A stretch of DNA of 64,000 nucleotides from an uncultured Bacilli bacterium (GTDB lineage Bacteria > Bacillota_I > Bacilli_A > RF39 > UBA660), in NCBI GenBank assembly GCA_934090935.1, contig CAKOKD010000003.1:92604-156603 (forward strand), given 5' to 3'. The stretch's first letter is position 1. Every line of letters begins with the position of its first letter. The notes beneath the pieces are model-generated. The model saw nothing but the letters and a program-made list of their open reading frames with translations, ran no database searches and had not been told where the DNA came from. This document shows, in pieces, positions 7,742 to 42,931 of the stretch. The position numbers were made by a program, and so were the translations under genes.

Positions 7742-8863
7742 TTATCTAAATAACAACATGTAGATTAAAAATCCTATTAAAATAGTTGTTATGATAATTC
7801 CATTAATTGTATCTGTTTTATCAGTTCTTCCTTCAACACCAACTATCATACCAGAGAATAATCCTCCAACAAGTCCACCAATATGACCAAAGTTATCAAT
7901 CATTGGATTCATAAAGCCGATTACTAGGTTTAAGATTATTACAGGAACTATACCAGTCATCATTACATTTCCTAAATATAATCTATAATGATATCCAAAG
8001 TATAATAAAGATCCCATAAGACCAAATATTGCTCCGCTTGCTCCAATTGATGAATAATTACCTAATACTCCACTTAAAAGTGAAGAAACAATTGCACTCA
8101 TTAAATATACAAATATAAATTTTTTCTTCCCTAAAACGTTTTCTAATTCTTTACCAATTATAGCAAGTGAATACATATTGCAAAGCAAATGTATTATATC
8201 TGCATGGAAAAATGCGGCTGTTATTAATCTATAGAATTCATGATTTTGTATTCCTGTTTTATTCATTGAAAAAGCGTTTACATCCAATATTCCTGAAACG
8301 GATAACATAAATATAAGTACATTTATAAATATCAAAACATAAGTGATGATAATTGGCTTTTTCTTAAATGTTTTTTCAAATAATTTGTTTTTTTCTTCTG
8401 TTTTAACATTGATATCATTCGTAACGTTTATGAAGAAATCCATATTATCGCTTGAAGATATTTCATCATTTTTTATATCTGGGAATATCTCAAGAAGTCG
8501 GTTGTTTTCGATTCCTTCATCAACATCTATTTTACATAGATCCATGTTTTTTCGATGCTCATCAAACTTAACATTTTCACCAATATTTAAGAATATATTT
8601 AAAGTTTTACATTTAAATGATAAAGTTTTCTTTTTTATTTGTTTGACTACTGAATTTGTTTTATAGATATCAAAATCCAATTGTTCATTATTATGAATAT
8701 AATTGCTATTGATTCTTACAACTTCGTAGTCTGAATCTAAGTTTTCTAACCATATTTCATTTTCAACACCATTTACAAGTATTGGTTGATAGTTTTCTTT
8801 TGTAATAAAGTAATGCACTAAACGCATCACTAATTGATCAGTATTTGACATGTTCATAACCAT
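7742..8863 (-). CDS. rhomboid-family intramembrane serine protease with N-terminal cytoplasmic extension
   Basis: C-terminal half has GASGAIFGLMGS (catalytic Ser in GxSG) and ...H... in the last TM helix. Multiple TM helices. Confidence 0.75.
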   Translation of the reverse strand: MVMNMSNTDQLVMRLVHYFITKENYQPILVNGVENEIWLENLDSDYEVVRINSNYIHNNEQLDFDIYKTNSVVKQIKKKTLSFKCKTLNIFLNIGENVKFDEHRKNMDLCKIDVDEGIENNRLLEIFPDIKNDEISSSDNMDFFINVTNDINVKTEEKNKLFEKTFKKKPIIITYVLIFINVLIFMLSVSGILDVNAFSMNKTGIQNHEFYRLITAAFFHADIIHLLCNMYSLAIIGKELENVLGKKKFIFVYLMSAIVSSLLSGVLGNYSSIGASGAIFGLMGSLLYFGYHYRLYLGNVMMTGIVPVIILNLVIGFMNPMIDNFGHIGGLVGGLFSGMIVGVEGRTDKTDTINGIIITTILIGFLIYMLLFR

Positions 8864-16602: not shown

Positions 16603-16722
16603 ACTCGCGTATAAATGCAACTGACTACCTTTATTTCATATGAAATAATAAGGCTCTTGAGCTTTGCGTCACTACATTTCTATAGTTTTGCCCTAATCTA
16701 CTTTAATAAAATATAACATAAT

Positions 16723-17791: not shown

Positions 17792-18970
17792 TTATACTAT
17801 TCTAAATGCTGGGGAAACACCTTTAGAGACGTTCGCATCGAAAGCGGAGTTGACGCCGCTGCTACTGACGCAAAGAAACCAGTAATTAACGCCAGAATAA
17901 GCCGAACGTAACCACCAATAGTCATTTCTTCCTTTATATTGTTTTATTGCTCCTGCATATTTATCAGCTGTTATTCCTTGATTTTTGTAATAATCTAATT
18001 GTCTTGACGTTCCTACTGATGTATCATGATCATCACCATTCCATACCTCTTGTGCATTTAATAAATATAATTTATCTTGTGTTTCAAAATTTGTTTCTCC
18101 AGAATTTTTTCCATGGCTTGATATTATTTTTGTTGAAGTTATTACACTTTGTAAGTCACTTGGAAGTGCATTATATATTGTTCCATTTATATATGTACGT
18201 AACTCTGAATTTTTCCATCCACCAACATTTGTTCTTGTACTGTTAAATGCTCGCATTGTTATTATATCTGCAAACTCAACTACAAATCCACATGCTGTTT
18301 CACTTGTTTCAGTTGTACATGCACTCATGTTTGCTATACGCACTGTATGTGTCCCTAGATTACCTAATTCTACTTCTTTAGTGTCTCCTACATTATATTT
18401 GCTTGTATTTCCATTCTTTACGTTTGATGCTATTGCTGACCAACTATCCTTTTGGAATTGAGTTAATTCTACACCAACTGTGTCCCTTTCTACTGCATTG
18501 AATTCTAACTTACATGTATATTCTTCACTTACTTCTTCTGTTGATGTTCTATCAAGTGTTACTGTTAATGTTCCGTTTAATGAAGTCTTTGCTTTTACAA
18601 CTGTGGCATTATTTTCAAGTTCATTCTTGATACTTGTATATTTTGCTTTTGTTCCGTCCTTTGGTACACATGTTACTTTAACCTCTGCATCATAGTTTGC
18701 TGAGTTATTTGTTACTTCGTAATTTAATATACTTGTTTGATTTAATGATTTTAATTCTGATGTTCCAAATGTTATTATCTTCTTTGTATCATCTACTACA
18801 GAACTATATACATCCTTTCCATCTATACTTGCAGCTGTGAAGATAACTGAGAAGTCATCTTGATCTTCGCTTACTTTAGCATTTCCGTTTATTATTAATG
18901 TTGTTGAGATCGCTGCAAATCCAATTGACATTAGTAATATTGCTACTATAAGCACACTCTTCTTTTTCAT
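17792..18970 (-). CDS. variable secreted protein paralog (N-module + SPAFRI-type C-domain)
   Basis: MKKKSVLIVAILLMSIGFAAISTTLIINGNAKV... C-terminus ends ...WWLRSAYS...GVSPAFRIV. Confidence 0.8.
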   Translation of the reverse strand: MKKKSVLIVAILLMSIGFAAISTTLIINGNAKVSEDQDDFSVIFTAASIDGKDVYSSVVDDTKKIITFGTSELKSLNQTSILNYEVTNNSANYDAEVKVTCVPKDGTKAKYTSIKNELENNATVVKAKTSLNGTLTVTLDRTSTEEVSEEYTCKLEFNAVERDTVGVELTQFQKDSWSAIASNVKNGNTSKYNVGDTKEVELGNLGTHTVRIANMSACTTETSETACGFVVEFADIITMRAFNSTRTNVGGWKNSELRTYINGTIYNALPSDLQSVITSTKIISSHGKNSGETNFETQDKLYLLNAQEVWNGDDHDTSVGTSRQLDYYKNQGITADKYAGAIKQYKGRNDYWWLRSAYSGVNYWFLCVSSSGVNSAFDANVSKGVSPAFRIV

Positions 18971-18997: not shown

Positions 18998-19025
18998 ATT
19001 TTATAATACCCCCCCCGATTGTCAA
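18998..19025 (-). promoter_or_regulatory. phase-variable-type promoter: -35 TTGACA (19020..19025), G8 tract (19009..19016), -10 TAAAAT (18998..19003); spacer 16
   Basis: The coding strand reads TTGACAatcGGGGGGGGtattaTAAAAT, then the leader with AAGGAAAG RBS and ATG at 18970. Confidence 0.6.
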
Positions 19026-19631: not shown

Positions 19632-20441
19632 TTATTTTTGACAGTTTTCACAAAAATAAGTTCCACGTCCGCCTACTCTTATTTTCTTTATTTTATTTTT
19701 ACAGTTTGGACATATTTCTTTTGTATGAACTTTTAAATAATCTTGATAATGACCAGTTACTCCTAAAGATGAAGTATAGCTTCTTATTGTTGAACCTCCA
19801 AGTTCTGTTGCTTTTTCAATAATAACTTTTGAAGAAATACGTATTTTATCACATTCATCTAAAGTGATACTTGATCCACTTCTATTTGGATTTATGTTTG
19901 AGGCAAATAAAACTTCATCAACATATATGTTTCCTAAACCATTTATAATTGATTGATCTAAAAGAAGTGTCTTTATCGGTTTATTTTTATTATGAATAGA
20001 TTTGTAGATATATTCTTTTGTTAAAGAATCATTATCGGGTTCTATTCCTAATTTCTTTATTTCCTTTGAAGAATATACATCTTTAGTTTTTAAAACTCGC
20101 ATACGACCAAATTTTCTTGTATCATGATATCTTAAAGTGAATTCATCAAATATGAATATCACATGTTCATGTTTTTCTATTGGCTCTTCTGCTTTCTTTA
20201 TAAAATATTTTCCTTCCATACGTAGATGAGATATTAACGTATATTCTCCTAAATTAAATAGTAAATATTTTCCAAAGCTACTAACACTTTCAATCGTTTT
20301 TCCAATTAATATATTTTTAAATTCGTTTATATCTTGATCAATTATACGATCATATATAACATTTATATCCTTTATTTTATTTCCTGGTAGACTTTTATTT
20401 AAAGTTCTTGCTACTGTTCTTACTTCAGCGATTTCAGGCAT
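19632..20441 (-). CDS. mutM: formamidopyrimidine-DNA glycosylase (Fpg/MutM)
   Basis: N-terminal MPEIAEVRT (catalytic Pro2/Glu3). C-terminal zinc finger CPNCKNKIKKIRVGGRGTYFCENCQK. Confidence 0.9.
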   Translation of the reverse strand: MPEIAEVRTVARTLNKSLPGNKIKDINVIYDRIIDQDINEFKNILIGKTIESVSSFGKYLLFNLGEYTLISHLRMEGKYFIKKAEEPIEKHEHVIFIFDEFTLRYHDTRKFGRMRVLKTKDVYSSKEIKKLGIEPDNDSLTKEYIYKSIHNKNKPIKTLLLDQSIINGLGNIYVDEVLFASNINPNRSGSSITLDECDKIRISSKVIIEKATELGGSTIRSYTSSLGVTGHYQDYLKVHTKEICPNCKNKIKKIRVGGRGTYFCENCQK

Positions 20442-21314: not shown

Positions 21315-23873
21315 TTATTTTGTTTCATATAAATTGATTCCAAAATCAGTTGATACTTTTAGAGGTACTTTTAATGTAACTGTATGTTCCATAATATCTT
21401 TTACTATCTTTCCAACCTCTTCTTTTTCACTTTCAACAATATCAAACACAAGTTCATCGTGAATTTGTAAAATCATTTTAGATTTGATATTATGTTTTTC
21501 AAATTCATTATCAATTTCAATCATGGCTTTTTTTATTATGTCAGCACTTGATCCTTGAATTGGAGTATTTAAGGCAATACGCTCCCCAGCACTTCTTACC
21601 ATAAAATTCGAATTAAATAATTCATCAATTGCCCTTTTTCTTTTAAACATCGTTCTGACATATCCACAGTCATAGGCATCCTTAATAGTTAAATCCATAT
21701 AATTTTTTACTCCTGGATAAAGAGATAAATACATATCAATAAACTTCTTTGCTTCTTTTGGAGAAACTCCAATGTTTTCACCTAAACCAAAACCACTTAT
21801 TCCATAAACTATTCCAAAGATAACAGCTTTTGCTGTACGTCTTTCTTGTGGAGTAACTTCATTCATTGGTTTTTTGAATATGTCTGATGCAACTTTAGTA
21901 TGAATATCATCTCCATTAACGAAAGCTTTTATTAAAGCTTCACTTCCAGAAAGATGAGCTAAAATACGTAGTTCAATTTGAGAATAATCGCTTGATAAGA
22001 ATAAATCATTAACAGGAACAAAGGCTTTACGAATTAATTTACCTAAATCATCACGTGCAGGAATGTTTTGTAAGTTAGGATCAGCACTTGAAAGACGACC
22101 AGTACGTGTTAAAGTTTGTTTATAAATAGTGTGTATTTTTCCATCTTCATGAATGAATTCTTTTAAACCTTTTAAATAAGTTGAATTTATCTTTGTTAAG
22201 TTACGATATTTTATTATTTGTTCAATAATTGGATGTAAGCCAAGAAGCTTTTCCAAAGTTGCAGCATCAGTTTTATAAGCATTTGTTAATTTCTTTCCAT
22301 GTGGAAGATTTAATTTTTCAAACAAAACTTCACTTAATTGAATACGAGAAGCTATATTAAACTCACAGCCAGAAAGTTCATATATAACTTTACTAACTTC
22401 TTCGATTTCACCTTCAATAGCTTGTTGCATTTCATTTAAAACGTTAATGTCACACTTTATTCCTTCAATTTCCATCTTAGCTAATACTTTTGATAGAGGA
22501 AGTTCAATATCAGTATAAAGTTCATACATATCCTCAGATTTGATATCTATAATATTTTTGTCATGAGTATCATAAATATATTTAGCTTTCTCAGCAACAA
22601 TGCTTTTTATATCCATTTTATTTTTTATAATATCATGTATTAGAGGTATAGAAGCAGAATCATTATTCATAAGAACAGCAACATCATCTTTAACAACCTT
22701 ATTTAAAAGATAAGCAATTAAATTTAAATCATAGATAACGTTTAAATCAAATCTATTTAAAAGCACATAAGCCTTCTTAACATCAAATGTATATTTCTTT
22801 ACATCTTTTGTATAATCAAATACTTGATCAATATCTTTTGCTTCTACAAAGAAAGCATTTGTTCCATCAAAAAGTCCCATTCCTAATATATTTGCCATAT
22901 GATAGTTTTCATTGTCACATTCAATATAGAAACTTATCTCTTTTGATCTGTCTATTTCATAAACACTTTCTAACTTTTTAAACTCAAATTCATGAGTACT
23001 CTCTTTTACTTCATGAGAAGTCATAAGTGAATAAAATTCTAAATCACGATAAAAATCATTTAAAGTATTTTTTGGACCAGTGTATCTCATATCTTCAAAA
23101 GAAAAGGGAATCGGAACTTCACGATATATAGTTGCAAGTTTCTTTGAAAAGTATGCAGAATCTTTTCCGTTTTCAAGTTTTTCTTTTAACTTTCCTTTTA
23201 TAGAATCAATATTTTCATAAACACCATCTAAAGAACCATAATCTTGTAAAAGTTTTAAAGCTGTTTTTTCGCCTATTCCAGCAACTCCTGGAATATTATC
23301 ACTTGAATCTCCCATAAGAGCTTTTAAATCTATTACTTTAATTGGTTCAATTCCATACTCTTCTTTAAAGTTCGTTGGATTATATCTCGTAAAATCTTTT
23401 GATTTTAAAAGTTTTACTTCTACAACATTAGAAATAAGTTGTAAATAATCATGGTCACTTGTTATAACTGTTGCATCCCATTCAGGATCTTCATCAGCTC
23501 TTTTAGCGAGAGTTCCAATTATATCATCAGCTTCATAATCCTCTATACCAATATTTTTTATTCCCATATGATCTAACATCACACGAGCAAGTGGCATTTG
23601 GCTTTTTAATTCTTCTGGCGTTTTAGCACGTCCTGCTTTATAATCTGCATATTCCCTGTGTCTAAAAGTTTTACCGATATCAAAAGCAACCAACATATAA
23701 TCCGGATTTTCTTCTTTGATTATTTTATTAATCATTGTTGCAAATCCATATAAAGCATTTGTTACTACTCCCTTAGAATTTTTCATCAAATTTCCTGTAT
23801 AAGCAGTTGCATAATAACTTCTAAACATTAAGTTATTTCCATCAATTAAGACTATTTTTTTCACGTTTATCAC
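21315..23873 (-). CDS. polA: DNA polymerase I
   Basis: 5'-3' exonuclease N-terminal domain. Polymerase motifs DYSQIELR (motif A), RRTAKAVIFGIVYG (motif B), QIHDELVF (motif C). 852 aa. Confidence 0.95.
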   Translation of the reverse strand: MINVKKIVLIDGNNLMFRSYYATAYTGNLMKNSKGVVTNALYGFATMINKIIKEENPDYMLVAFDIGKTFRHREYADYKAGRAKTPEELKSQMPLARVMLDHMGIKNIGIEDYEADDIIGTLAKRADEDPEWDATVITSDHDYLQLISNVVEVKLLKSKDFTRYNPTNFKEEYGIEPIKVIDLKALMGDSSDNIPGVAGIGEKTALKLLQDYGSLDGVYENIDSIKGKLKEKLENGKDSAYFSKKLATIYREVPIPFSFEDMRYTGPKNTLNDFYRDLEFYSLMTSHEVKESTHEFEFKKLESVYEIDRSKEISFYIECDNENYHMANILGMGLFDGTNAFFVEAKDIDQVFDYTKDVKKYTFDVKKAYVLLNRFDLNVIYDLNLIAYLLNKVVKDDVAVLMNNDSASIPLIHDIIKNKMDIKSIVAEKAKYIYDTHDKNIIDIKSEDMYELYTDIELPLSKVLAKMEIEGIKCDINVLNEMQQAIEGEIEEVSKVIYELSGCEFNIASRIQLSEVLFEKLNLPHGKKLTNAYKTDAATLEKLLGLHPIIEQIIKYRNLTKINSTYLKGLKEFIHEDGKIHTIYKQTLTRTGRLSSADPNLQNIPARDDLGKLIRKAFVPVNDLFLSSDYSQIELRILAHLSGSEALIKAFVNGDDIHTKVASDIFKKPMNEVTPQERRTAKAVIFGIVYGISGFGLGENIGVSPKEAKKFIDMYLSLYPGVKNYMDLTIKDAYDCGYVRTMFKRKRAIDELFNSNFMVRSAGERIALNTPIQGSSADIIKKAMIEIDNEFEKHNIKSKMILQIHDELVFDIVESEKEEVGKIVKDIMEHTVTLKVPLKVSTDFGINLYETK

Positions 23874-23904
23874 CTAAAAAAATTATACCACAAATTGGGT
23901 ATAA

Positions 23905-24672
23905 TTACTCTTTAATTAAATCAATTAAATCAACTATCTCTAAATTGTTATATTTCAATTTACTTAAATATACTTTAAATTCATTTAATGTAAGATTATT
24001 ATCAATCTTAATAATTGATCCTCCTTTAGTATTATTTACATAAGAAGAAATATTAGAACTTTTTAATTCTATTGTTGGTTTTATTATAAATGATTTTGTA
24101 CTTATACAAGCTGAATGATTGGATACATCAACAACACATATATTTTTATTTAAACTATTTTTCTTTAAAAAACGACGAATATCATTAAAATCATCTTCAT
24201 TAGAAGCACCGTTTATATATGTGATTTCTTTCTTATTTATTTCATCTTGTTCTTTTACTATTTTAGAAAACTTTATTTTTTCAGTTAATAAATATTCTTC
24301 AATAGTTTTATTATCAACTACTAAAGCAACATCCGTTTCACTTACATTTCCAATTATTACTTTATCTAAATGATCCATTACAGAAATTTCAGGTTTTATG
24401 TAATCATAGACAAAGAAAGTTTCATTAAACGATCCAAAATCATTCATTTTTAAATAACTTTCACGTTTATTTAATTCTCTTCCCCTTTTTCCAGTTATTA
24501 TTGTATTATCTTCAATAATGGCATTAACGGGACTTTCATATAAGGAATCTTCATACATCTTTATTTCTTTCATAAGAGGGCTTAAATTTTCAACATAAAG
24601 TATTAGTCTATCCGATGCATAAAAGGATAGAACACATAAAGCTATTACAAGAGCATATTTAACATATTTCAT
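23905..24672 (-). CDS. hypothetical secreted or membrane-anchored protein
   Basis: N-terminal signal or anchor MKYVKYALVIALCVLSFYA. No family assigned. Confidence 0.4.
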   Translation of the reverse strand: MKYVKYALVIALCVLSFYASDRLILYVENLSPLMKEIKMYEDSLYESPVNAIIEDNTIITGKRGRELNKRESYLKMNDFGSFNETFFVYDYIKPEISVMDHLDKVIIGNVSETDVALVVDNKTIEEYLLTEKIKFSKIVKEQDEINKKEITYINGASNEDDFNDIRRFLKKNSLNKNICVVDVSNHSACISTKSFIIKPTIELKSSNISSYVNNTKGGSIIKIDNNLTLNEFKVYLSKLKYNNLEIVDLIDLIKE

Positions 24673-24749
24673 ATTTTCACCTATTTAATATATATGATAA
24701 ATGCTCATTTAAATAACTAAATTATCAGCAAAGTTAAAACTAAAATATA

Positions 24750-24772
24750 CAAAAAAAATCACATAAGTGATT
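24750..24772 (-). terminator. rho-independent terminator of paralog 24786..26153 (AATCACTTATGTGATT + U8); direct repeat of the whiA terminator
   Basis: Hairpin plus TTTTTTTT on the minus strand. 22/23 identical to 26341..26362. Confidence 0.55.
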
Positions 24773-24785
24773 CTTTATTATTTTA

Positions 24786-26153
24786 TTATTTTATTAATGT
24801 TATACGTGCATATCCATTTCCTTGTTTAGAACAGTTTTCGGTTGGTGTTTCGCTTGTGCATGTAGTTGATATGGTTTTTGTTGACTCTTCACTAGATTCA
24901 GTACAGTTGTAACAATACATCGATTTTTCGGATAAAAGTGAATTTCCTATGTATCCTGAACCTCCGCCAGCGGTATATCCAGCAACAGTTCCACCATAGA
25001 AACCTCCACCGCCTCCAGCCCAGGCCAAAGTGCCTCCACCGCCTTGACCAAATGTTCCAAAATTAGGATTATTTTTATTTGAAGACTCATTCACTGAATT
25101 ATATATTCTTTTGCCTCCATTTGTTTGGGTTCCTCCAAATCCTTGATAGGGTTTGCCTGAAGATGCTGCTATATAAGATCCCGAGTTTCCTCCAATATAA
25201 CCACCACCGGATCCAGAAACTATTTTATAATTATGGTCGTTATTACCACCACCGGCTCCTCCTCCAGAAACAATTAATACATCATCAATGTTATTATTAA
25301 AAGCATATAGTAAACCAGATTCTAATGCTATGTGTGTCGCACCACCTCCACTTGCATTATATGAATTAGTAGCCGAATTAAATGATGCAGATCCTCCTCC
25401 ATTATAGCCGCCTTCTTTGTTTACCCAAGTTAATTCTCCAAGGCCTTGTCCTCCAATATTAATATAAAACTTATTATTCTTTTCTAAATAAATTATTCCT
25501 TGAGAATACCCTCCATATCCACCAGAAATATTTACAGTTTTTCCACCTTCTGCTCCCCAAGTTTCAAGCTTATATGTTCCATTTACTGGAACTTCAAATG
25601 TTTGTTCATCTCCAGTATAATCAAATGTCCATTCTGTTGGTCCATCGTAACTAACACCTAATTCTGTTCTTTCTACGGCATTAAATTCTAATGAACATGT
25701 ATATTCTTCAGTTGTTTCTTCTATTGATTGTTTATCTAAGGTAACAGTTAATGTTCCATTTAATGTTTCGTTTGCTTTTACAACTGTTGCATTTCCTTCT
25801 AATTCATTTTTGATACTTGTATATTTTGCTGTTGTTCCGTCCTTTGGTACACATATAACACGCACTTCTGCATCATAGTTTGCTGAATTGTTTGTTACTT
25901 CATATGTTAGTACTGATGTATCATTTAGTTTTTTTAGGTCTTTACTTTTAAATGTTATTGTCTTCTTTGTATCATCTGTTACTTCATCATATACATCTAT
26001 TCCATCTAATGTTGCTGCTGTAAATATTACTGAATAATCATCTGTATTTTCATTTACTTTTGCATTTCCATTTATTATCAATGTTGTACTTACTGCTGCA
26101 AATCCAATTGACATCAATATTATTGCTACTACTAACATGCTCTTCTTTTTCAT
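24786..26153 (-). CDS. variable secreted protein paralog: conserved N-module + ALK/LTK-like glycine-rich (poly-Gly) domain + Cys-containing C-terminal tail
   Basis: N-module MKKKSMLVVAIILMSIGFAAVSTT... Then PTEWTFDYTGDEQTFEVPVNGTYKLETWGAEGG...GGYGGYSQG...GGGATHIALESGLL...LIVSGGGAGGG... Tail YCYNCTESSEESTKTISTTCTSETPTENCSKQGNGYARITLIK. Confidence 0.8.
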   Translation of the reverse strand: MKKKSMLVVAIILMSIGFAAVSTTLIINGNAKVNENTDDYSVIFTAATLDGIDVYDEVTDDTKKTITFKSKDLKKLNDTSVLTYEVTNNSANYDAEVRVICVPKDGTTAKYTSIKNELEGNATVVKANETLNGTLTVTLDKQSIEETTEEYTCSLEFNAVERTELGVSYDGPTEWTFDYTGDEQTFEVPVNGTYKLETWGAEGGKTVNISGGYGGYSQGIIYLEKNNKFYINIGGQGLGELTWVNKEGGYNGGGSASFNSATNSYNASGGGATHIALESGLLYAFNNNIDDVLIVSGGGAGGGNNDHNYKIVSGSGGGYIGGNSGSYIAASSGKPYQGFGGTQTNGGKRIYNSVNESSNKNNPNFGTFGQGGGGTLAWAGGGGGFYGGTVAGYTAGGGSGYIGNSLLSEKSMYCYNCTESSEESTKTISTTCTSETPTENCSKQGNGYARITLIK

Positions 26154-26180
26154 ATTCTACCTACTTTCCTTTACTTTTTT

Positions 26181-26208
26181 ATTTTATAATACCCCCCCCG
26201 ATTTTCAA
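26181..26208 (-). promoter_or_regulatory. phase-variable-type promoter: -35 TTGAAA (26203..26208), G8 (26192..26199), -10 TAAAAT (26181..26186); spacer 16
   Basis: Same element as the other copies. Followed upstream by an about 130-bp block shared with 31835..31960. Confidence 0.6.
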
Positions 26209-26340
26209 GGGCATTATCTTGTTTTACATTACTTTTGTCGTCTTTTTTATTTTGTTCTCCTATTGTTTCTTATATTATACAACATTTTTATTGTGCTTTG
26301 TATATTCATTTTTATTATGTGTAAAATATTTGTTTTAAAT

Positions 26341-26362
26341 AAAAAAAATCACAAAAGTGATT
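26341..26362 (-). terminator. rho-independent terminator of whiA (AATCACTTTTGTGATT + U8)
   Basis: Hairpin plus TTTTTTTT immediately after the whiA stop at 26365. Confidence 0.55.
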
Positions 26363-26364
26363 AT

Positions 26365-27276
26365 TTAAACATTATCCTTATTTTTATTTTTTTCAACTAA
26401 TTCTTTTATCTTTCTAAAATGATGATTAATTCCTGATTTGGTTATATTTATATCAGTTTCTAAAGAAATTATTTCAGCTAATTCACTCATTGTTGTTTCT
26501 GGATATTTAATTCTATAAGAAATGATTAATTTTGTTTTATCATCCAATAAAGATTCTAAATCATTTTCTTTTAAATAATTAATATTCTCAAGTTGTTCAT
26601 TGCAGGTTTTCATCGATTTTTCAACATTTGCTTGCTCACAGTTATTAAGTCTATTAACCATATTTTTATGATCTCTATAGATTCTTATATCCTCAAAATA
26701 GAACAAAGCATTTATCGCACCAATCAATTTTATGAAGTCGCTTATCTCCTCTGCTTGTTTTAAATAAACCATATATCCTTTTTCTCTTTTTAAAATTTTA
26801 CTAGAAAATCTAAAATGTTTAAGCAATTTGTCTATTGTCTTTGAATTCTTTTCATCACCAATTAAAAATTCAAGATGATATTTACTTTTAGCTGGATCGT
26901 TTATGGAACCTACTGCTAAAAAAGTTCCTTTAAGATATGATGCTTGTTCTTCATCAGTTAAATCATTTATTGATCTATATACACTTTCAATATCATTTTT
27001 TATAATATTAACCTTCTCAACAACATTCAAATAATATATTTTTTTGTTAAAAAACTTTTTTTGAGTACGCACGGTAAGATTGATATTTACTCCATAAATT
27101 CTTTTTAGTAAATTAAATATTCTTCTTGCTACGCTTGGATTTTCTGTTTTTACAGTTAAAATGTTATCCATTGCATCATTATATTTTAAAAATGCACATA
27201 GTTCACTTATAGACTCAAGTTTATTTGTTTCTATTTTAGTTATCTCATCTTTTATTTGAGTTGTAAATGATGCCAT
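26365..27276 (-). CDS. whiA: DNA-binding cell-division/sporulation regulator WhiA
   Basis: MASFTTQIKDEITKIE...LCAFLKYN (LAGLIDADG-like N-terminal domain). C-terminal HTH (MSELAEIISLETDINITKSGINHHFRKIKEL). Confidence 0.85.
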   Translation of the reverse strand: MASFTTQIKDEITKIETNKLESISELCAFLKYNDAMDNILTVKTENPSVARRIFNLLKRIYGVNINLTVRTQKKFFNKKIYYLNVVEKVNIIKNDIESVYRSINDLTDEEQASYLKGTFLAVGSINDPAKSKYHLEFLIGDEKNSKTIDKLLKHFRFSSKILKREKGYMVYLKQAEEISDFIKLIGAINALFYFEDIRIYRDHKNMVNRLNNCEQANVEKSMKTCNEQLENINYLKENDLESLLDDKTKLIISYRIKYPETTMSELAEIISLETDINITKSGINHHFRKIKELVEKNKNKDNV

Positions 27277-27861: not shown

Positions 27862-29508
27862 CTAAAATAATTCTTTTAATTCGTGTTTTATATCCTTTAT
27901 AGTGTTAACTATATCTGGATTATATTTGTTTTCTTCAACCATAAGAATATTCTTCATCGCGATGTTGAAAGATTTGCTTAAAGTATATTGCAATATTTTT
28001 ACAGAAATATTTGTTATTTGAGCTTCTATTGGAATATTTTCTCCTGTTAAAGCATTTGGGTATCCAGCTCCATTATACATCTCAAAACTATAATTAATGA
28101 TATTGCTTGCAACTTTAAAATGTAAATTATCCTTTATATAGTTTTGAATTAAAATATGTCCATAGTCTATTTCTTCTTTAATGGAATCACTTGTTATAAC
28201 CGAATCCTTTGATATCGCGATTGATCCAACATTATATAATGCACATGATTTAACTATATTATCTATATATTTTGAATCTAAATTATATTTTGGATATTTA
28301 TTAGCAAGACTTACACTTACTAGTCTAACTATTTTCTTTAAAAGCATGGATTCTTTTGATGTCTCAATATTTGTAATAATTTTATTTATGATTAACTCCA
28401 ATGATTTATTATCATTTACAGTTTTTAATTCCTCATTTTGAACTTCAACTATATTTTGTAAACTATTACTAGATTGATATAGGTTAATAATTTTTCCAAA
28501 TCTTCTTCTAATATTTTCTGTATTAAATGGTTTTTCAAGCATATCTACTATGTCATATTGATATACTCTCTTTCTCGTCTCTCTTGTTTCATCCCCACTT
28601 ATTATGGCAACAGGAATTCTATTGAATAAGTCATTAGATTTCATAAATTCAAGAACGTCGAAGCCATCAGATTCAGGCATCACTAAATCAAGAAGCATAC
28701 CTACAATATTTTCATGATTTCCACTTACTGATGATGTTAAAACATTATCAGTAATAATGTTTATCGCTTCTAAACCATTTTTAGCAACTAATATCTCAAA
28801 ATCATTAGAGAATATTCTTTTTAACGAGTTTCTAATTATTGAAGAATCATCTACGATTAAAATTGATGGCTTTTTATAACTGCTCATCTCCGCCATTCTA
28901 TTTAAGATGGCTTTATTTAACTCAGGATGTTCTTCTGTTACTTTGTTGAATATCGAATTTATATAGTTTCTTGTTTGTTCACTTCCATTAGATGTGTCAA
29001 GAGCATGATTTATAAGATAGATTGCATCACTTATGCTCTTGTTTTCCTTATCCAATCTCTTCTTATAATCAGTAACTTCAGTTTCAAGTTTATCATTTTC
29101 ACTTTCAATATCAGTTAAACGATTGCTTATATCTTCACTCATCATAAATATAAGTTTTTTGCCTTCAAATGGCAAATAATTGATTATATTTACAAACCAT
29201 TTATACTCTCCAGTTTCACATAGTTTACGATATTTTATTTTTGTTTCATTGTTTCCCTTTTGACTTTCTTCTTCTAATTTATTAATTGATAAAGCATCAA
29301 AATAGTTTGATAAATCAGCAGAATTTACAAAACGTTTAGCTACATCTATGAAAGATGTATATGATGTAGTTTCTTTAATGATTAGATTATTGCTTATTGT
29401 AAAATCAAATTTGTATACTTTATCAGCTATTACATCGATTACATATATATTAGAGTAATTAGCATTTATAATTCTTGATACTTGTTCAATTAAACCTGAT
29501 TCGTTCAT
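27862..29508 (-). CDS. response-regulator receiver protein with N-terminal coiled-coil region and C-terminal degenerate HD-GYP-like domain
   Basis: REC domain (SILIVDDSSIIRNSLKRIF...LLDLVMPESDGFDVLEFM...). C-terminal ...YNGAGYPNALTGENIPIEAQI matches the GYP signature, but the upstream HHE metal motif is not evident. Confidence 0.5.
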   Translation of the reverse strand: MNESGLIEQVSRIINANYSNIYVIDVIADKVYKFDFTISNNLIIKETTSYTSFIDVAKRFVNSADLSNYFDALSINKLEEESQKGNNETKIKYRKLCETGEYKWFVNIINYLPFEGKKLIFMMSEDISNRLTDIESENDKLETEVTDYKKRLDKENKSISDAIYLINHALDTSNGSEQTRNYINSIFNKVTEEHPELNKAILNRMAEMSSYKKPSILIVDDSSIIRNSLKRIFSNDFEILVAKNGLEAINIITDNVLTSSVSGNHENIVGMLLDLVMPESDGFDVLEFMKSNDLFNRIPVAIISGDETRETRKRVYQYDIVDMLEKPFNTENIRRRFGKIINLYQSSNSLQNIVEVQNEELKTVNDNKSLELIINKIITNIETSKESMLLKKIVRLVSVSLANKYPKYNLDSKYIDNIVKSCALYNVGSIAISKDSVITSDSIKEEIDYGHILIQNYIKDNLHFKVASNIINYSFEMYNGAGYPNALTGENIPIEAQITNISVKILQYTLSKSFNIAMKNILMVEENKYNPDIVNTIKDIKHELKELF

Positions 29509-31799: not shown

Positions 31800-31827
31800 A
31801 TTTTATAATACCCCCCCCGATTTTCAA
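31800..31827 (-). promoter_or_regulatory. phase-variable-type promoter: -35 TTGAAA (31822..31827), G8 (31811..31818), -10 TAAAAT (31800..31805); spacer 16
   Basis: Identical architecture to the 26181..26208 copy. Confidence 0.6.
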
Positions 31828-31998
31828 GGGCATTGTCTTGTTTTACATAACTTTTGTCGTCTGTTTTATTTTGCAGTTGTATTATATCTTATATTATACA
31901 ACATTTTCGTTGTATTTTGCATATTCATTTTTATTATGCGTAAAGTGTATTTATTTATTATCATTGTAATTTATATTGAAAAATGTTATATTTATTTT

Positions 31999-32089
31999 AG
32001 TGAGAAGCAGAAGTTTTCTTTTGAGGCTGATGCTTACCACGTGTTATGTGTACGCATCCTTATTCAGTAGAATAAAGATGCTTTTTTTT
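31999..32089 (+). ncRNA. candidate antisense small RNA copy 2 (promoter TTGTAA-17-TATATT at 31964..31992; terminator 32054..32089)
   Basis: Motif A (GTGAGAAGCAGAAGTTTTCTTTTGAGGCTGATGCTTACCAC), then GCATCCTTATTC-agta-GAATAAAGATGC plus T8. Convergent with the 27-aa peptide ORF, whose stop lies in the U-tract. Confidence 0.4.
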
Positions 32090-32171
32090 ATTGCCATAAT
32101 AATTTTAAAATTATTACTAGCAATATAAAAACGATTAGATAAAGTAATCTTATATGATTATCTTTTTTCAT
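32088..32171 (-). CDS. 27-aa hydrophobic peptide (type I toxin-like): MKKDNHIRLLYLIVFILLVIILKLLWQ
   Basis: AGAGGAAG RBS 7 nt before ATG. Near-consensus promoter TTGACA(32289..32294)-16-TATAAT(32267..32272) fires directly into the reverse complement of motif B (32229..32261). Confidence 0.45.
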   Translation of the reverse strand: MKKDNHIRLLYLIVFILLVIILKLLWQ

Positions 32172-32344
32172 CGTATCACTTCCTCTCGTACTCCTTAACC
32201 AAAACCCTGAATATTTAGCCTCTAGTTTGGAAGTGATAAGCACCTTTTTCTGCTTCTCGAGTTTGTATTATATATGCTAAATTTTTCTTGTCAATAAATC
32301 CGACAAATGTCGACAAAATTAGAACCTAAAAAAAATAAAATATA

Positions 32345-32369
32345 TAAAAAAAATCGCATTCTTGCGATT
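32345..32369 (-). terminator. rho-independent terminator of 32368..34497 (stop codon lies inside the hairpin)
   Basis: Minus-strand AATCGCAAGAATGCGATT plus TTTTTTTT. Confidence 0.5.
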
Positions 32370-34497
32370 ATTTTATTAAGGTAATACGTGCGTATCCGTT
32401 TCCTTGTTTTGAACAGTTTGCTGTTGGAGTTTCATTTGTACATGTAGTTGATATAGTTTTTGTTGCCTCTTCACTAGACTCGGTACATTTATAACAATAC
32501 ATTGATTTTTCACTTAATTGTGAATTTCCTATATATCCTGAGCCTCCACCAGCTCCAGCATAATGTGAAAAACCGCCTCCATAAAAGCCAGCACCTCCTC
32601 CGGCTCCAGAAGTTCCTGTATCATATCCACCAATTCCAAAGACTCCATAATTAGTTGTTCTTATACCATGATCTGTACTAGAGTTATATCCATTTCCATA
32701 AACTACAGTTCCACCACTTGTTTGACTTCCTCCAAAGCCTATCCAATAGTAATCACCACTGTTGGTTCCATCGTTACCTTTGTATCCACCACCGGCTCCT
32801 CCAGATCCACTATAAGATGAAGAGTCATTTGTTCGATATCCAAAAGCTGCTCCTCCGCCTCCGGAAACCATTAAGATGGAATCAAGATCGTTTTGTAGAT
32901 TTTCTAGTCTTTCACTTTTTAGTAAAATATAACTAGCATCTCCTCCATCACTACTTCCTTTATAAACTTCATTTCCTTGACCTCCACCAAAGACTTTGTT
33001 TTGTCCACCAACAGTTATATATAAATTATCTTTTTTGTTTAGATAAATTTCTCCAATAGAATATCCTCCATATCCTCCGATATAGGAAACTCCCGCCTTT
33101 GAAGTTGCATTACCTCCTTGTGCTCCCCATGTCTCTAACTTATATGTTCCACTTGTTGGTGCTGTAAATGTTTGCTCTAATCCAGTATAATCAAATGTCC
33201 ATTCAGTTGAGCCTGTATATATTTCTTCTTTTGTCGTTCTTGATATCTTGTTAACTTTTAATTTACAAGTGAAATTCTCCATATTAATATTCTCTAATGT
33301 TATTGACTTCTTATCTTGTGCTTCTATTGTTACCACTTCTGTTGAAGTAATTTCTTTTGAATTACTTGAAACTAGAGTAATACGAGCGTATCCATTGCCT
33401 TGCTTTGCACAATTTTCAGTTGCTGTTGATGAAGTACATGTAGTTGAAATGGTTTTTGTTGACTCTTCATCTGACTCAGCACAGTTATAGCAATACATTG
33501 ATTTTTCACTTAATTGTGAATTACCAATATATCCTGAGCCACCTCCAGCGCCTCCATGGAAACTACCTCCGCCTCCATAAAAGCCAGCACCTCCGCCACA
33601 AGCAACATAATTTGCCACAGTTGATCCAAATCCTTTACCAAATGTACCAATACATGCTCGATATCCGCTTGATGTTCCTTTTATCCAGACCATATCTCCT
33701 CCAGTTGTTTGACTACCACCTGTTCCATAACCATATCCATATCCGTTAGTATGGTTAACTGACTCTCCGTTGTTTCCTTTTATTCCTCCGGCAGATCCTC
33801 CGTTTCCATCTCCATAACCTGAGCCTCTGTTTGCTGCTCCGCCTCCACCTCCAGAAACAATCAATATGTTTTCTTTTTTAGTTTCAAAAGTGGATAATAA
33901 TCCCGATAAATCTGCTATATGTGTTGCTCCGCCGCCAGCTTTTCCGTAATTGCCATTATTAACGTACCCACCGCCATTATATCCTCCGGTAAGAGCAACT
34001 CCTTGACCACCTGCATTTATATATAGAATTTTTCCACCTTCTAAGGTCATTTTACCAGAAGAATATCCGCCATAGCCTTCAAAATAATTTGATGAATAAG
34101 ACCCACCTTGTGCTCCCCATGTTTCAAGCTTGTATGTTCCACTTATTGGTGCTGTAAATGTTTGCTCCGATCCTGTGTAATCAAATGTCCATTCAGTTTT
34201 CTCCGGTGTTACATTGCTTTCACACTCAAGATAACTTTCTGTGTCATATTCTGTTGAATCATTTACTATATCTATACTTATGTTTCCATTTATATTGCTT
34301 AAAGTAAATTCGTCTTTTGCATCATTTATTCCTGTACTTTCCGTATCATTTACTTTTAAATTATCTAAATATACTTTAAAGTCACTTATGTTTTCTTCTA
34401 GTTTACCCAATCCATATATATTCACTGTTGCATTATAAGCAGAAAAACCTATCACCATAAACAATATTGTTAAAAGCAAAATGATTCCTTTCTTCAT
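32368..34497 (-). CDS. large secreted protein with two ALK/LTK-like glycine-rich domains (tandem paralog of 29601..31772)
   Basis: MKKGIILLLTILFMVIGFSAYNATVNIYG... Same two-domain organisation and the same C-terminal tail. No poly-G promoter upstream. Confidence 0.75.
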   Translation of the reverse strand: MKKGIILLLTILFMVIGFSAYNATVNIYGLGKLEENISDFKVYLDNLKVNDTESTGINDAKDEFTLSNINGNISIDIVNDSTEYDTESYLECESNVTPEKTEWTFDYTGSEQTFTAPISGTYKLETWGAQGGSYSSNYFEGYGGYSSGKMTLEGGKILYINAGGQGVALTGGYNGGGYVNNGNYGKAGGGATHIADLSGLLSTFETKKENILIVSGGGGGAANRGSGYGDGNGGSAGGIKGNNGESVNHTNGYGYGYGTGGSQTTGGDMVWIKGTSSGYRACIGTFGKGFGSTVANYVACGGGAGFYGGGGSFHGGAGGGSGYIGNSQLSEKSMYCYNCAESDEESTKTISTTCTSSTATENCAKQGNGYARITLVSSNSKEITSTEVVTIEAQDKKSITLENINMENFTCKLKVNKISRTTKEEIYTGSTEWTFDYTGLEQTFTAPTSGTYKLETWGAQGGNATSKAGVSYIGGYGGYSIGEIYLNKKDNLYITVGGQNKVFGGGQGNEVYKGSSDGGDASYILLKSERLENLQNDLDSILMVSGGGGAAFGYRTNDSSSYSGSGGAGGGYKGNDGTNSGDYYWIGFGGSQTSGGTVVYGNGYNSSTDHGIRTTNYGVFGIGGYDTGTSGAGGGAGFYGGGFSHYAGAGGGSGYIGNSQLSEKSMYCYKCTESSEEATKTISTTCTNETPTANCSKQGNGYARITLIK

Positions 34498-38573: not shown

Positions 38574-38601
38574 ATTTTATAATACCCCCCCCGATTTTCA
38601 A
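38574..38601 (-). promoter_or_regulatory. phase-variable-type promoter copy: -35 TTGAAA (38596..38601), G8 (38585..38592), -10 TAAAAT (38574..38579)
   Basis: Same element. Here it is upstream of a non-paralog cargo gene. Confidence 0.55.
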
Positions 38602-39783: not shown

Positions 39784-40704
39784 ATGCAAGAAATTATTAA
39801 TAAAATAATACAACAAAATCAAAATTTATTTAGAGAAAATTCAACAGTAAGTAAAATTAATGTTGGATTTACCAATACTTTATATAGTGTTAATGATTCT
39901 TTTATTATCAAAATATGTACTGATTTAAATAATGAACCTAAATTCAATAAAGAAATAGAATTTTATAATGCAAATAACAATAATGATTTAATACCAAAGT
40001 TATATTATGCTAACACTGATAAAGCTGATATTCCATTTTTCTATGAAATATTAGAAAAAATTAATGGAGTTTCATTATATGATGTTTGGCATACTTTTAA
40101 CGAAGAACAACGAGAAGACATTATTAAACAATTATGTGAAGCAATGAAACAATTTCATAGTAATAAAGGGCAAAGTTATGATTGGGTAAAAAGAACTAGC
40201 TATTTATTTATAAATTCGTATAACAAAGCAAAAGAATTGAATTTACTTACTAGCGAGGAACAAGAATTGTTAGAAAGTGCTTATTCAAAATTTGATGGAT
40301 ACTTACAATCTGATGAATTTGTTTTAATCCATAATGATTTGCACTTTGATAATGTATTTTATGATAATGGAAAAATAAAATTAATTGATTTTGAAAGATC
40401 AATATATGCACCAAGAGATTTTGAATTAGATATTCTTTATAGAATGATCAGAAAACCTTGGAAGTTTGCAAGTGAAGAAAATGAGCGATATACAAAACTA
40501 GAAGATTATGAAAATATAATGTCTTATATTGAAAAATATTATCCAGAATTAATACATATTGATAATTTATATCAAAGACTTGCAATATATGATATTGTTT
40601 ATTTCTTGAAACAATATGTTAATGCACCACAATATGATGAATTAAAACAAGATGTATTAAATGCAGCCAAGATTGTTGTAGGAAATCAAAAAGTAAAATT
40701 ATAG
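39784..40704 (+). CDS. aminoglycoside/choline-kinase (APH) family phosphotransferase
   Basis: Brenner motif HNDLHFDNVFYDNGKIKLIDFE (catalytic HxDxxxxN ... D). 306 aa. Confidence 0.65.
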   Translation: MQEIINKIIQQNQNLFRENSTVSKINVGFTNTLYSVNDSFIIKICTDLNNEPKFNKEIEFYNANNNNDLIPKLYYANTDKADIPFFYEILEKINGVSLYDVWHTFNEEQREDIIKQLCEAMKQFHSNKGQSYDWVKRTSYLFINSYNKAKELNLLTSEEQELLESAYSKFDGYLQSDEFVLIHNDLHFDNVFYDNGKIKLIDFERSIYAPRDFELDILYRMIRKPWKFASEENERYTKLEDYENIMSYIEKYYPELIHIDNLYQRLAIYDIVYFLKQYVNAPQYDELKQDVLNAAKIVVGNQKVKL

Positions 40705-40717
40705 GAAGTGATGATTA

Positions 40718-41245
40718 ATGGATAGTTTTGTATGTAAAATTGCTACTCGAGATGAAATTATAAAAAGAATGAACTATTTAATAGAAACTCATCCTAACAA
40801 TAATGTATGGATAGAGGCAAAAGAAAATGCTCTTAAAGGATTTGATGAACAAAGTAAAATAATGTATATAGGCGTTCTTAATGATGAAATAATTTGTGAA
40901 GCAACCACTTATATAAAAGAATCCGCATTCATAGGAGATGTAAAAGAACCAGAAGGCTTATTAAGTAAAACTATGGCATATTTTAGTGGTTTTAGAACAA
41001 ATAAAGAGTACGAAGGTAAAGGTTATTTTGGTAAATTGTATAACTTTATGGAAGATGATTTAAAAAAAAGAGGATATACTGAATTTTGTTTAGGGGTTAA
41101 ACCTCGTAATGTTAGAAATATGGAAATATACTTTCATTTAGGATTTAGAGAATTTATTAAATCAATTATTGAATATGAACCAGTAAAAAATAACAAATCT
41201 AAAACAGAATTAGTGGTTATAAACTATTTTAAAAAGAAGATATAG
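40718..41245 (+). CDS. GNAT-family N-acetyltransferase (putative)
   Basis: 175 aa. EYEGKGYFGKL (motif A, Q/RxxGxG/A-like). Immediately downstream of the APH-family gene. Confidence 0.5.
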   Translation: MDSFVCKIATRDEIIKRMNYLIETHPNNNVWIEAKENALKGFDEQSKIMYIGVLNDEIICEATTYIKESAFIGDVKEPEGLLSKTMAYFSGFRTNKEYEGKGYFGKLYNFMEDDLKKRGYTEFCLGVKPRNVRNMEIYFHLGFREFIKSIIEYEPVKNNKSKTELVVINYFKKKI

Positions 41246-41529
41246 CAAAATAAAAATCGTGGCACGTTATGAACTTACAAAGTAATTTTGTAAGTGGCGA
41301 TAGATTTTTATAATTTATTTTCATTACGAAGTTTTGAAAATAAACAATTGCAATTTATTACAATTCAAAAAAACATAATTTGCTTGAACGAATTGTTCTT
41401 GCTTAATTATGTTTTAGGGTTTCAAAAGGGAATATTCCCTTTGCACACACCTATTGGCTCTGCCAATAGAGAAGTGTGTTTTATCTATTGGAAATAAATA
41501 TTACTGACAAGCGAATGCTTGTCTTTTTA

Positions 41530-42357
<828 letters not shown>

Positions 42358-42557
42358 TCAAAAATACTAGTAGTTCAAACTAATACTCTTGACTCCTCAA
42401 TAATACTAATATAATAAGTTTTTAAATGTTTTCGTTTACTTTTAACCATAGAAGTACCTCGCTTTCTAATAAAAGACTAGATACTGCTTGCTTTTATTGG
42501 TTTACTATATTATACTTTTATCTTTGATTTGTCAATTCCTTATTTAGGGAATGAATA

Positions 42558-42875: not shown

Positions 42876-42931
42876 TTCTGTTAGTAATTTATTACTCTCG
42901 AAACTTTAAAAGTTCGAGTTTCCTATCAATA

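Follow-up and report, generated by a model that had tools for sequence, protein, structure and literature searches.

The paralog unit between whiA and g255

The DNA analysed here (the window) is a 64-kb stretch from an uncultured human-gut lineage of Bacilli, in which secreted glycine-rich-domain (GRD) and DUF6273 proteins form a large, recombining family with more than 4,000 relatives in public data. On the minus strand of the window, whiA (26365..27276; Pfam domains WhiA_N, LAGLIDADG_WhiA and HTH_WhiA) is followed by the gene for a secreted GRD paralog of 455 amino acids (24786..26153). The paralog begins with a hydrophobic leader, continues with a domain that is common to the DUF6273 genes, and has a C-terminal ALK_LTK_GRD domain (Pfam PF12810, E = 2.4e-34); no lipobox cysteine is present in the GRD and DUF6273 proteins. 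Part of the gene (25669-25968) is 79% identical to positions 18486-18785. Between strains, the 455-aa paralog is hypervariable (about 30-80% nucleotide identity), and its flanks are 98-100% identical.

The gene is preceded by a sigma-70-type promoter (26181..26208, minus strand) that reads TTGAAA-ATCGGGGGGGGTATTA-TAAAAT. Its 16-nt spacer contains a run of eight G residues (G8, 26192-26199), which places a homopolymer between the -35 and the -10. Tract length, as read from consensus assemblies, is G8 in most of them, G9 in L006 (orthologous tract) and in L007, and G7 at window position 7521, with an interrupted TG6 in L114 and G4 in L123. Upstream of the promoter lies a block of about 130 nt (26209..26340, minus strand) with an invariant TTGTATAAT box, which is shared with a 723-aa gene (87%), with L120 and with the region downstream of whiA in L008 and L010. 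At the other end, a spacer (24673..24750, minus strand) runs from the distal hairpin described below to a 255-aa gene (g255), and only the g255-proximal ~50 nt of this spacer (from TAGTTATTTAAATGAG) is orthologous to the sister species. The gene polA follows g255.

The unit of gene, promoter and upstream block also occurs elsewhere. A copy next to def (L114) matches window 26325-24783 with 83% identity along 1547 nt. It has a terminator of its own, as does a copy next to a DHH gene (L120). In the g660-RR548 slot, GRD723 is now followed by the resident terminator tail, with no duplication. Flanking direct repeats were found at none of L114, L120 and the 709/723 loci, and the hairpin repeat at the borders of the window unit is missing in three other contexts. 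A T8 run in front of the block in L120 was considered as a relic of the hairpin and rejected, the similarity being too weak. An earlier note on this DNA had described the unit as a 1.6-kb mobile or duplicated cassette; it is indeed a unit in a gene family whose members are duplicated and dispersed, but its mobility was not borne out. At the ends of GRD genes, the 3′ end and terminator are swapped in L003/L005, with a different downstream context, and in L007 a Band_7 gene is joined to the last 10 nt of GRD709 and its terminator. These results show that recombination breakpoints lie at GRD gene ends.

A direct repeat of two predicted terminators

On the gene strand, whiA is followed by AATCAC-TTTT-GTGATT-T8 and the paralog by AATCAC-TTAT-GTGATT-T8. 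The right, whiA-side copy (26341..26367, minus strand) comprises the whiA TAA, 2 nt, the hairpin and the T8 run, and is the predicted intrinsic terminator of whiA. The left, distal copy (24751..24779, minus strand) comprises TAAAG, the hairpin and the T8 run, and is the predicted terminator of the paralog. Against shuffled sequences, the right copy folds at -6.5 kcal/mol (z -2.5) and the left copy with its flanks at -10.9 kcal/mol (z -3.9). The hairpin begins 2 nt past the whiA TAA; past the paralog TAA this distance is 2 nt in most strains and 13 nt in the window allele, which has an 8-nt tandem duplication. The run after each copy is T7-T8, and a separate promoter stands beyond the whiA copy. 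The left copy is present in same-species contigs, with a mutated stem in L001/L002 (AACCAC, -4.2 kcal/mol, z -0.2). As the earlier note had proposed, the right copy has the predicted shape and position of a whiA terminator, and the left copy those of a paralog terminator. Both look like stop-codon-proximal intrinsic terminators, and actual termination is something that we infer from the sequence. A search of Rfam matched no RNA family, either within the cassette or nearby. A stretch of 25 nt with 84% complementarity between the whiA terminator and the upstream block was considered as an anti-terminator; it was rejected as low-complexity pairing of an A-run with a T-run, because the block has kept the same sequence at the 723 locus, which has no such hairpin directly upstream.

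The same motif, AATCAC-N4-GTGATT, would also suit an operator for a DNA-binding regulator rather than mainly a terminator, since it is a perfect 6+6 palindrome that occurs twice near putative phase-variable promoters. However, both copies lie past stop codons, their T-runs are confined to the transcribed strand, no promoter overlaps with either of them, and the other family promoters lack the motif. In addition, the left stem is broken in L001/L002 with nothing else changed, and an operator function appears extremely improbable.

When the two copies are aligned (24751-24772 and 26341-26362), 21 of 22 nt match, and the sole mismatch is in the loop. The earlier note had counted 22 of 23; both copies are present where it placed them, but the right copy has eight A's before TCAC and not nine. 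The likeness reaches the stop codon on the minus strand, as TAAA[G/T]AATCACTT[A/T]TGTGATTTTTTTT, with 27 of 29 positions matching in the window and 28 of 29 when the whiA copy is taken from strain L002 and the paralog copy from strain L004. Homology between the copies is limited to this module, from the TAA to the end of the T-run, and stops there on both sides. The loop centres, TTTT in the whiA copy and TTAT in the paralog copy, are distinct in every strain.

Both the 20-mer with up to two mismatches and the pattern AATCRC-N4-GYGATT occur exactly twice in the 64 kb, compared to 0.01 expected from shuffles. In a comparison of gene 3′ flanks (1378 pairs), the whiA/paralog pair ranked second (21/22). 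The top pair (22/22) was that of genes 7742..8863 and 19632..20441, which may reflect a sequence that the two DUF6273 genes next in line have in common in their upstream regions. Among the 12 perfect hairpin terminators of the window, the AATCRC stem is common to whiA, the 455-aa gene and the 709-aa GRD gene only, and the stems of the first two are identical.

Two independent, simple AT-rich terminators could nevertheless have come to share a stem by chance. A scan of the JGI metagenomes, a collection without this organism, found the 21-mer in 22 stretches, all from unrelated organisms. Because the identical 21-mer recurs independently in about 16 unrelated AT-rich contexts, mostly right past stop codons or tRNA, such simple terminators can converge, and about 4 G/C positions hold most of the information. 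The shuffle expectation and the restriction of the stem to three of the 12 window terminators argue against convergence here, as do the adjacency of the two genes and the extension of the match beyond the stem, to three of four loop positions, the prefix and the length of the T-run, and we give chance very little weight. In the DNA examined, the hairpin occurs only at the ends of whiA and of GRD genes, and the ubiquity that the earlier note had named as a refuting observation was not seen. Taken together, these results confirm that the repeat is real and beyond chance, and they support the two hairpins as homologous copies.

A third member of the hairpin family (32352..32370, minus strand; AATCGCA-AGAA-TGCGATT-T8) overlaps the stop codon of the 709-aa GRD gene. 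The earlier claim of kindred hairpins at the ends of other glycine-rich genes is right for this gene (32352-32369) but fails for the 723-aa gene, which ends in an unrelated hairpin, AAAAGTTCAAATGAACTTTT. In the 10 nt past its T-run, the left copy is nearer to the flank of the 709-aa gene terminator (20/22) than to that of whiA, and it could therefore descend from a family terminator. The left copy would then be the GRD family's own terminator (AATCRC...GYGATT, as after the 709- and 712-aa genes and the L003 allele), carried with the 3′ end of the gene, and its closeness to the whiA hairpin would be due either to a compensatory change of G-C to A-T or to an older common ancestry. In this species, GRD genes end in four variants with AATCGC, all of which overlap the stop codon, and L003/L005 show 3′ end and terminator modules moving among family members. 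In contrast, stem and loop match the whiA copy at 15 of 16 positions, the TAAAG prefix is that of the L002 whiA allele, the 709 type differs in stem length (6 vs 7 bp), in one stem base pair and in the loop, and GRD genes of the sister species have unrelated terminators. We regard descent from a family terminator as unlikely, if still worth weighing.

The whiA-g255 slot in related genomes and the origin of the distal copy

About 100 kb of this lineage was examined, with sister species defined by WhiA proteins of 84-86% identity (the best WhiA match in the genome-contig search was 86%). An empty site, in which the whiA hairpin is joined straight to GTATATTTTAG...g255, was found on none of the about 30 same-species contigs that carry identical WhiA, g255 or the paralog. 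The whiA stop codon with the left flank 15-40 nt on gave 0 matches in the JGI metagenomes, in which this organism is not represented. In the sister species, the slot between whiA and g255 was occupied by family-derived DNA in every case: one GRD gene in L010, two in L008, a 281-aa gene and a GRD gene in L011, 280- and 384-aa ORFs with DUF6273 and GRD genes in L013, and a promoter, a small ORF, g239, a truncated AAA gene and a GRD remnant in L123. The whiA stem AATCAC/GTGATT is kept in L008, L009 and L123-L132 (AAATCAC-CAAAA-GTGATTT) and is found in a decayed version in L010. In both L008 and L010, the whiA terminator is directly followed by the same upstream block and a G8 promoter, which shows that the proximal junction predates speciation. 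The distal hairpin copy is missing from the orthologous position in L008, L010, L011, L013 and L123, and no sister species has one. Taken together, these results show that the whiA-side junction is ancestral and that the distal copy is species-specific. The sister species may have lost a distal copy, and their g255 side has itself undergone exchange by recombination, which bears on the whiA-first polarity; g255 and polA are 92-99% identical to those of L008/L010, and WhiA only 85-86%.

The earlier note had taken the repeat for a target duplicated by site-specific insertion or duplicative transposition. The unit would then have entered the whiA terminator by a site-specific, Campbell-type or transpositional event, perhaps after its excision as a circle from a different locus of the family, and would have duplicated a 22-29-bp target in which the hairpin was att-like. 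The claim of exact flanking is correct, because the hairpins stand just outside the limits of paralogous homology (26341 and 24783), and the repeats thus bracket exactly the paralogous unit. The sequences abutting the whiA T-run differ between lineages, as if the whiA hairpin were a preferred breakpoint, and kindred AATCRC hairpins lie at other rearrangement junctions (L007, L003/L005). However, the PF12810 protein is the only gene of the unit, which has no integrase or transposase by Pfam, and no inverted repeat pairs its two ends. Target duplications are typically 2-14 bp, and 22-29 bp would be long for one. The proximal junction is common to sister species that have no distal copy and hold family genes or remnants in the slot, three other copies of the unit have no such repeat, and the same-species contigs yielded no empty site. 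The earlier note had itself named relatives in which the paralog is ancestral at this site and the repeat is single as refuting its reading, and the sister species show this pattern. The distinct loop centres are also unfavourable for a crossover core. An insertion footprint is, in our judgement, quite unlikely.

The recombinase search applied Pfam to most window ORFs of at least 100 aa up to 61.3 kb, apart from a 2195-aa ORF. The only recombinase-like ORF among those scanned was a truncated resolvase (serine recombinase, 41848-42324) near tRNA-Arg, 15 kb from the unit. It was rejected as a player, since the ORF is incomplete and far from the unit and the two hairpins differ in their loop centres. 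Terminator hairpins of the type AATCRC...GYGATT, with the stop codons before them, might also be preferred att-like or breakage-prone joints for the capture, duplication and exchange of promoter-carrying surface-protein units in this lineage. If true, this would mean a cassette system based on terminators, either independent of a recombinase or acting in trans, and it would explain the varied sequences at the whiA T-run as well as the L007 and L003/L005 junctions at hairpins; we find it highly doubtful.

The distal repeat probably arose when the terminator module was duplicated locally, as surface genes with poly-G promoters were turned over in a plastic slot. Both repeats would be copies of one predicted module, consisting of a stop codon, a hairpin with a 6-bp stem and a U-tract. 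The whiA copy would be the older one and would mark the fixed proximal edge of the plastic whiA-to-g255 slot, which would have held poly-G-promoter surface-protein genes since before the split of these species. The distal copy would have arisen within this species, by local duplication rather than by insertion. Two routes could have produced it. An unequal crossover may have duplicated the segment terminator-block-promoter-GRD in tandem, joined at the TAAA after both stops, and the second gene copy would then have been lost. Alternatively, a short templated copy may have been made in one step, with microhomologies TAAA on one side and ATATTT on the other. Both microhomologies are present at the required junctions, and a terminator-unit-terminator-unit intermediate was not observed in the contigs examined. 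We infer the direction of copying and the two-step or templated mechanism from these comparisons. The unit itself would spread and diversify by homologous recombination, with crossovers in the conserved parts at its two ends (the 5′ block with the promoter, and the 3′ end of the coding region), and would be neither an autonomous nor a hairpin-targeted mobile cassette.

Significance and comparison with known systems

Had the repeat been the 22-bp target duplication of a mobile cassette, the cassette would have represented a small mobile unit of a new kind. Because the evidence points to ordinary paralog turnover, the repeat alone matters little, and the gene family with G8 in the promoter spacer is more notable. 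Its genes have G8-spacer promoters and occupy conserved slots whose contents differ by strain and species, and by analogy the family looks like a mycoplasma-style contingency system. A search of the full-text literature found no relevant paper for RF39 phase variation or for PF12810.

The direct repeats around a discrete 1.6-kb unit resemble transposon target-site duplications or att repeats. Unlike in those systems, there is no transposase, integrase or terminal inverted repeat here, other copies of the unit have no repeats, the repeat is a predicted 22-29-bp terminator, and the proximal junction predates the distal copy. Integron cassettes are likewise single-gene units bounded by an imperfect palindrome able to form a hairpin. 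However, the unit described here has its own promoter, lacks an IntI gene, an attI and an array served by one promoter, and no integrase domain was found by Pfam in the ORFs scanned. The palindrome is 16 bp, whereas attC sites of integron cassettes are 57-141 bp with R/L boxes. With Rho-independent terminators, the hairpins share a short stem-loop with a T-run on the coding strand, 2-13 nt past the stop codon, and an upstream A-run that can extend the stem, but their stems (6 bp, 2 G-C pairs) are too weak to pass the consensus scan applied here. Segmental or tandem duplications that arise when paralog arrays cross over unequally also leave direct repeats at boundaries, a variable number of genes per slot and chimeric paralogs; here, in contrast, the terminator module alone is still duplicated, and the postulated second gene copy is gone.

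Families with a homopolymer in the promoter spacer are known in Mycoplasma hyorhinis (vlp, poly-A) and in Neisseria (opc and porA, poly-C/G). The likeness to these contingency families concerns the content of the cassette, not the flanking repeat. The proteins described here differ in that they carry an ALK/LTK-type glycine-rich domain or DUF6273, and any switching of their expression is putative. As in those families, there is a secreted or surface multigene family with a conserved 5′ region, a tract between -35 and -10, and mosaic, recombining coding regions; in the consensus assemblies the tract reads G7, G8 or G9, and its length may vary between strains.

The hairpin repeat behind whiA and the paralog

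All genes in the region of whiA (26365-27276, three WhiA Pfam domains), the 455-aa paralog (24786-26153), g255 (a 255-aa gene, 23905-24672) and polA (21315-23873) lie on the minus strand. The paralog product is secreted, and Pfam places an ALK/LTK glycine-rich domain in it (GRD; PF12810, E 2e-34); each of two genes farther upstream, of 723 and 709 aa, has two PF12810 domains. A separate promoter (TTGAAA-16-TAAAAT) precedes the paralog, and a G8 tract lies within its spacer. The block of about 130 nt upstream of this promoter is 87% identical to that upstream of the 723-aa gene, and the final ~200 nt of the paralog coding sequence share 71-84% identity with the four other domain ends of the 723- and 709-aa genes. 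In the upstream block (26209-26340), a TTGTATAAT box and further positions are invariant in paralogs and species alike (alignment A1), a pattern suggestive of a second promoter or regulatory site ahead of the poly-G one.

On the gene strand, whiA ends in GTT TAA AT AATCAC TTTT GTGATT TTTTTTTT and the paralog in AAA TAA TAAAATAATAAAG AATCAC TTAT GTGATT TTTTTTTT. The aligned repeat is 22 nt long with one mismatch (24751-24772 vs 26341-26362), and its coordinates and strings agree with the earlier note except for one surplus A in the right-hand string. The paralogous homology spans 26341 to 24783 with the hairpins just outside, which confirms that they flank the unit of gene, promoter and upstream block exactly. 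In the 64 kb there are exactly two occurrences of the 20-mer, with at most 2 mismatches allowed, and likewise two of the motif AATCRC-N4-GYGATT, compared to 0.01 expected from shuffles. When the 60 nt downstream of 53 genes were compared (1378 pairs), the whiA/455 pair ranked second with 21/22, behind a 22/22 pair that presumably reflects sequence common to the upstream regions of two DUF6273 genes next in line. A perfect hairpin with a T-run was present in 12 of these 53 flanks; among the 12, the AATCRC stem is common to the whiA, 455 and 709 terminators only, with identical stems for whiA and 455. Similarity starts at the stop codon (TAAA[G/T]AATCAC...) and ends with the T-run; it amounts to 27/29 in the window, and to 28/29 when the whiA copy in L002 is set against the paralog copy in L004, both same-species contigs.

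Both hairpins beat shuffled controls in folding. Their stems are short, with just 2 G-C pairs, which explains why these two escaped a generic scan for terminators that did pick up the 709-gene hairpin. By sequence, both qualify as intrinsic terminators. An operator function is less likely, as each copy follows a stop codon and runs into a T-run. At the paralog 3′ end, an 8-nt tandem duplication (ATAAAATA, 24773-24795), absent from six other same-species contigs (L001-L006), shifts the stop (ITLIK* instead of ITLIKQ*) and changes the stop-to-terminator distance from 2 to 13 nt.

The interval between whiA and g255 in strains and sister species

Contigs with identical WhiA (n = 21), identical g255 (n = 10) or identical paralog (n = 11) were read; all showed the order whiA-paralog-g255 or a variant thereof, and no empty site was seen among them. 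Between strains, the flanks are 98-100% and the upstream block about 94-100% identical, whereas identity falls to about 30-80% from the 5′ UTR to the stop, which shows that the gene varies and not the whole hairpin-to-hairpin segment. The loop is invariant across strains (TTTT at the whiA copy, TTAT at the distal copy), and the distal stem is damaged in L001 and L002 (AACCAC, -4.2 kcal/mol, z -0.2). In L003 and L005, TAATCGCAAAAACGCGATT replaces the paralog 3′ end and terminator, and a tRNA followed by a polysaccharide deacetylase lies downstream; the locus has been rearranged here, and the break falls within the paralog gene. Strain-level rearrangement junctions at GRD gene 3′ ends were observed at L003 12390-12470, L005 6900-6980 and L007 4890-4930, the last fusing a Band_7 gene to the final 10 nt of a 709-type gene and its terminator.

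The nearest other lineages have WhiA proteins 84-86% identical, and no intermediates were found. The whiA stem is kept in L008, L009 and ten more sister-species contigs, L123-L132 (AAATCAC-CAAAA-GTGATTT plus T8-10), and is decayed in L010, and the sequence after the whiA T-run diverges at once in every lineage. In L008 and L010, the upstream block and G8 promoter can be recognised directly after the whiA terminator (alignment A1), as in the window, which indicates that the whiA-side junction is older than these species. Every sister-species contig spanning whiA-g255 has family-derived DNA in this slot, with variable content: one two-domain GRD gene (L010), two GRD genes (L008), a 281-aa gene and one GRD gene (L011), 280- and 384-aa ORFs with a DUF6273 gene and a GRD gene (L013), or a promoter, small ORF, g239, truncated AAA gene and GRD remnant (L123). 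The AATCAC hairpin is absent from the distal end of all five; in L008, L010 and L123 the TAA joins AATATTTTTTAGTTATTT directly, and L011 and L013 have an unrelated hairpin. The earlier note had read the repeat pair as a duplicated target such as site-specific insertion or duplicative transposition would leave, and these slots, with family DNA but no duplicated distal hairpin, are the result it had itself named as refuting that reading.

The g255 and polA proteins of L008, L010 and L123 are 92-99% identical to those of the window (21315-24672), whereas their WhiA proteins are 85-86% identical, and sister-species WhiA and response regulator reach just 84-86%. The distal side has thus been exchanged between lineages, and an interspecies recombination boundary falls within the GRD slot, which is a caveat to the refutation drawn from the sister species.

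Other copies of the unit and the origin of the distal hairpin

The closest relative of the paralog (84% at the amino acid level) has a 164-aa gene on one side and def, in convergent orientation, on the other (L114-L117). There, homology covers the whole unit (window 26325-24783, 83% over 1547 nt), the terminator is an unrelated one, no flanking repeat is present, and the upstream region runs on into the longer region found upstream of the 723-aa gene. In L120, a DHH-family gene precedes the block and promoter of the unit, and the locus closes with another unrelated terminator. In sister species the response-regulator gene directly follows g660; in the window these two are separated by the 709- and 723-aa genes, and the ancestral terminator tail and response-regulator promoter are now behind the 723-aa gene, without duplication. 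Since repeats are lacking at the L114, L120 and 709/723 loci, insertion or loss of family units does not as a rule leave a hairpin duplication. A conserved region of about 390 nt between the 709- and 723-aa genes (31960-32350, minus strand) contains a perfect TTGACA-16-TATAAT promoter (32294..32267), a ~95-nt leader, a 27-aa hydrophobic ORF and a hairpin; it matched no Rfam family and recurs in part upstream of the L114 unit (L114 4700-4850).

The unit codes for a surface protein only, and no inverted repeats were found at its ends. Among most other window ORFs of at least 100 aa, the sole recombinase-type Pfam match is a 158-aa resolvase fragment 15 kb away. Insertion with target duplication is thus less likely. 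By the criteria tested for each class, the unit is neither a transposable element nor an integron cassette. The resolvase catalytic-domain fragment (41848-42324) lies beside tRNA-Arg(CCT) (42932-43006) in a small island remnant (39784-43006) that also holds an APH-family kinase and a GNAT acetyltransferase.

In JGI metagenomes, AATCACTTWTGTGATTTTTTT matched 22 stretches in about 16 distinct contexts, mostly AT-rich DNA and several directly after a stop codon or tRNA; none of the 22 codes for relatives of the proteins of this region. These unrelated contexts show that the terminator form can arise independently, and the scan is uninformative on this genome. As seen over about 100 kb, AATCRC hairpins in this lineage are confined to whiA and GRD gene ends, plus the one behind the L007 Band_7 fusion, and pure convergence of two terminators is less likely. 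On an unrelated metagenomic contig (L111 1082-1315, GC 0.43), the same 21-nt hairpin occurs three times in about 230 nt, embedded in a longer repeated element. As a credible alternative, the distal copy may be the terminator that the GRD family itself uses (AATCRC type), since the sequence downstream of it agrees with the 709-gene flank at 20/22; the stem of the distal copy, however, is that of whiA.

Taken together, the repeat is best read as a duplicated terminator module, of which the comparisons identify the whiA copy as ancestral and constrained and the distal copy as species-specific. The simplest fit to the junction sequences is a two-step history, in which terminator, block, promoter and gene would have been duplicated in tandem, joined at the TAAA behind both stop codons, and the second gene copy would then have been lost via ATATTT, which occurs both behind the whiA T-run (L002 allele) and behind the ancestral GRD stop codon. 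A single templated patch would be equivalent. The repeat reported in the earlier note is real, and its probable explanation is an ordinary one; more interest attaches to the gene family and the plastic slots it occupies.

Poly-G promoters and surface proteins

Promoters built as TTGAAAATC-G(n)-TATTATAAAAT, with the G-run within the -35/-10 spacer, were found at six places, all on the minus strand: five with G8 tracts (57305-57312, 38585-38592, 31811-31818, 26192-26199 and 19009-19016) and one with G7 (about 7515-7521). They drive genes for secreted proteins of the PF12810 or DUF6273 type, as well as a small ORF. Other surface-protein and regulatory features of the window include a c-di-GMP-I riboswitch (59.6 bits, 16613-16702, minus strand) that precedes a 102-aa ORF and a 719-aa Ig-like/Flg_new surface protein, a response regulator that carries an HD-type domain and lies between GRD genes (27862-29508), and a 2195-aa ORF (46224-52811, minus strand), probably another large surface protein, that adjoins a cadherin-like-domain protein of 469 aa.

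At orthologous sites the tract is G9 in L006 and L007, TG6 in L114-L117 and G4 in L123, and in distant relatives G9-G11 tracts adjoin TATAAT boxes (L036, L051, L055, L059, L077 and L085). This polymorphism (G7, G8, G9 and interrupted tracts) is suggestive only, and the poly-G loci are candidate phase-variable contingency loci. Contingency genes with homopolymer spacers are known in Mycoplasma and Neisseria, and the content of the unit resembles them.
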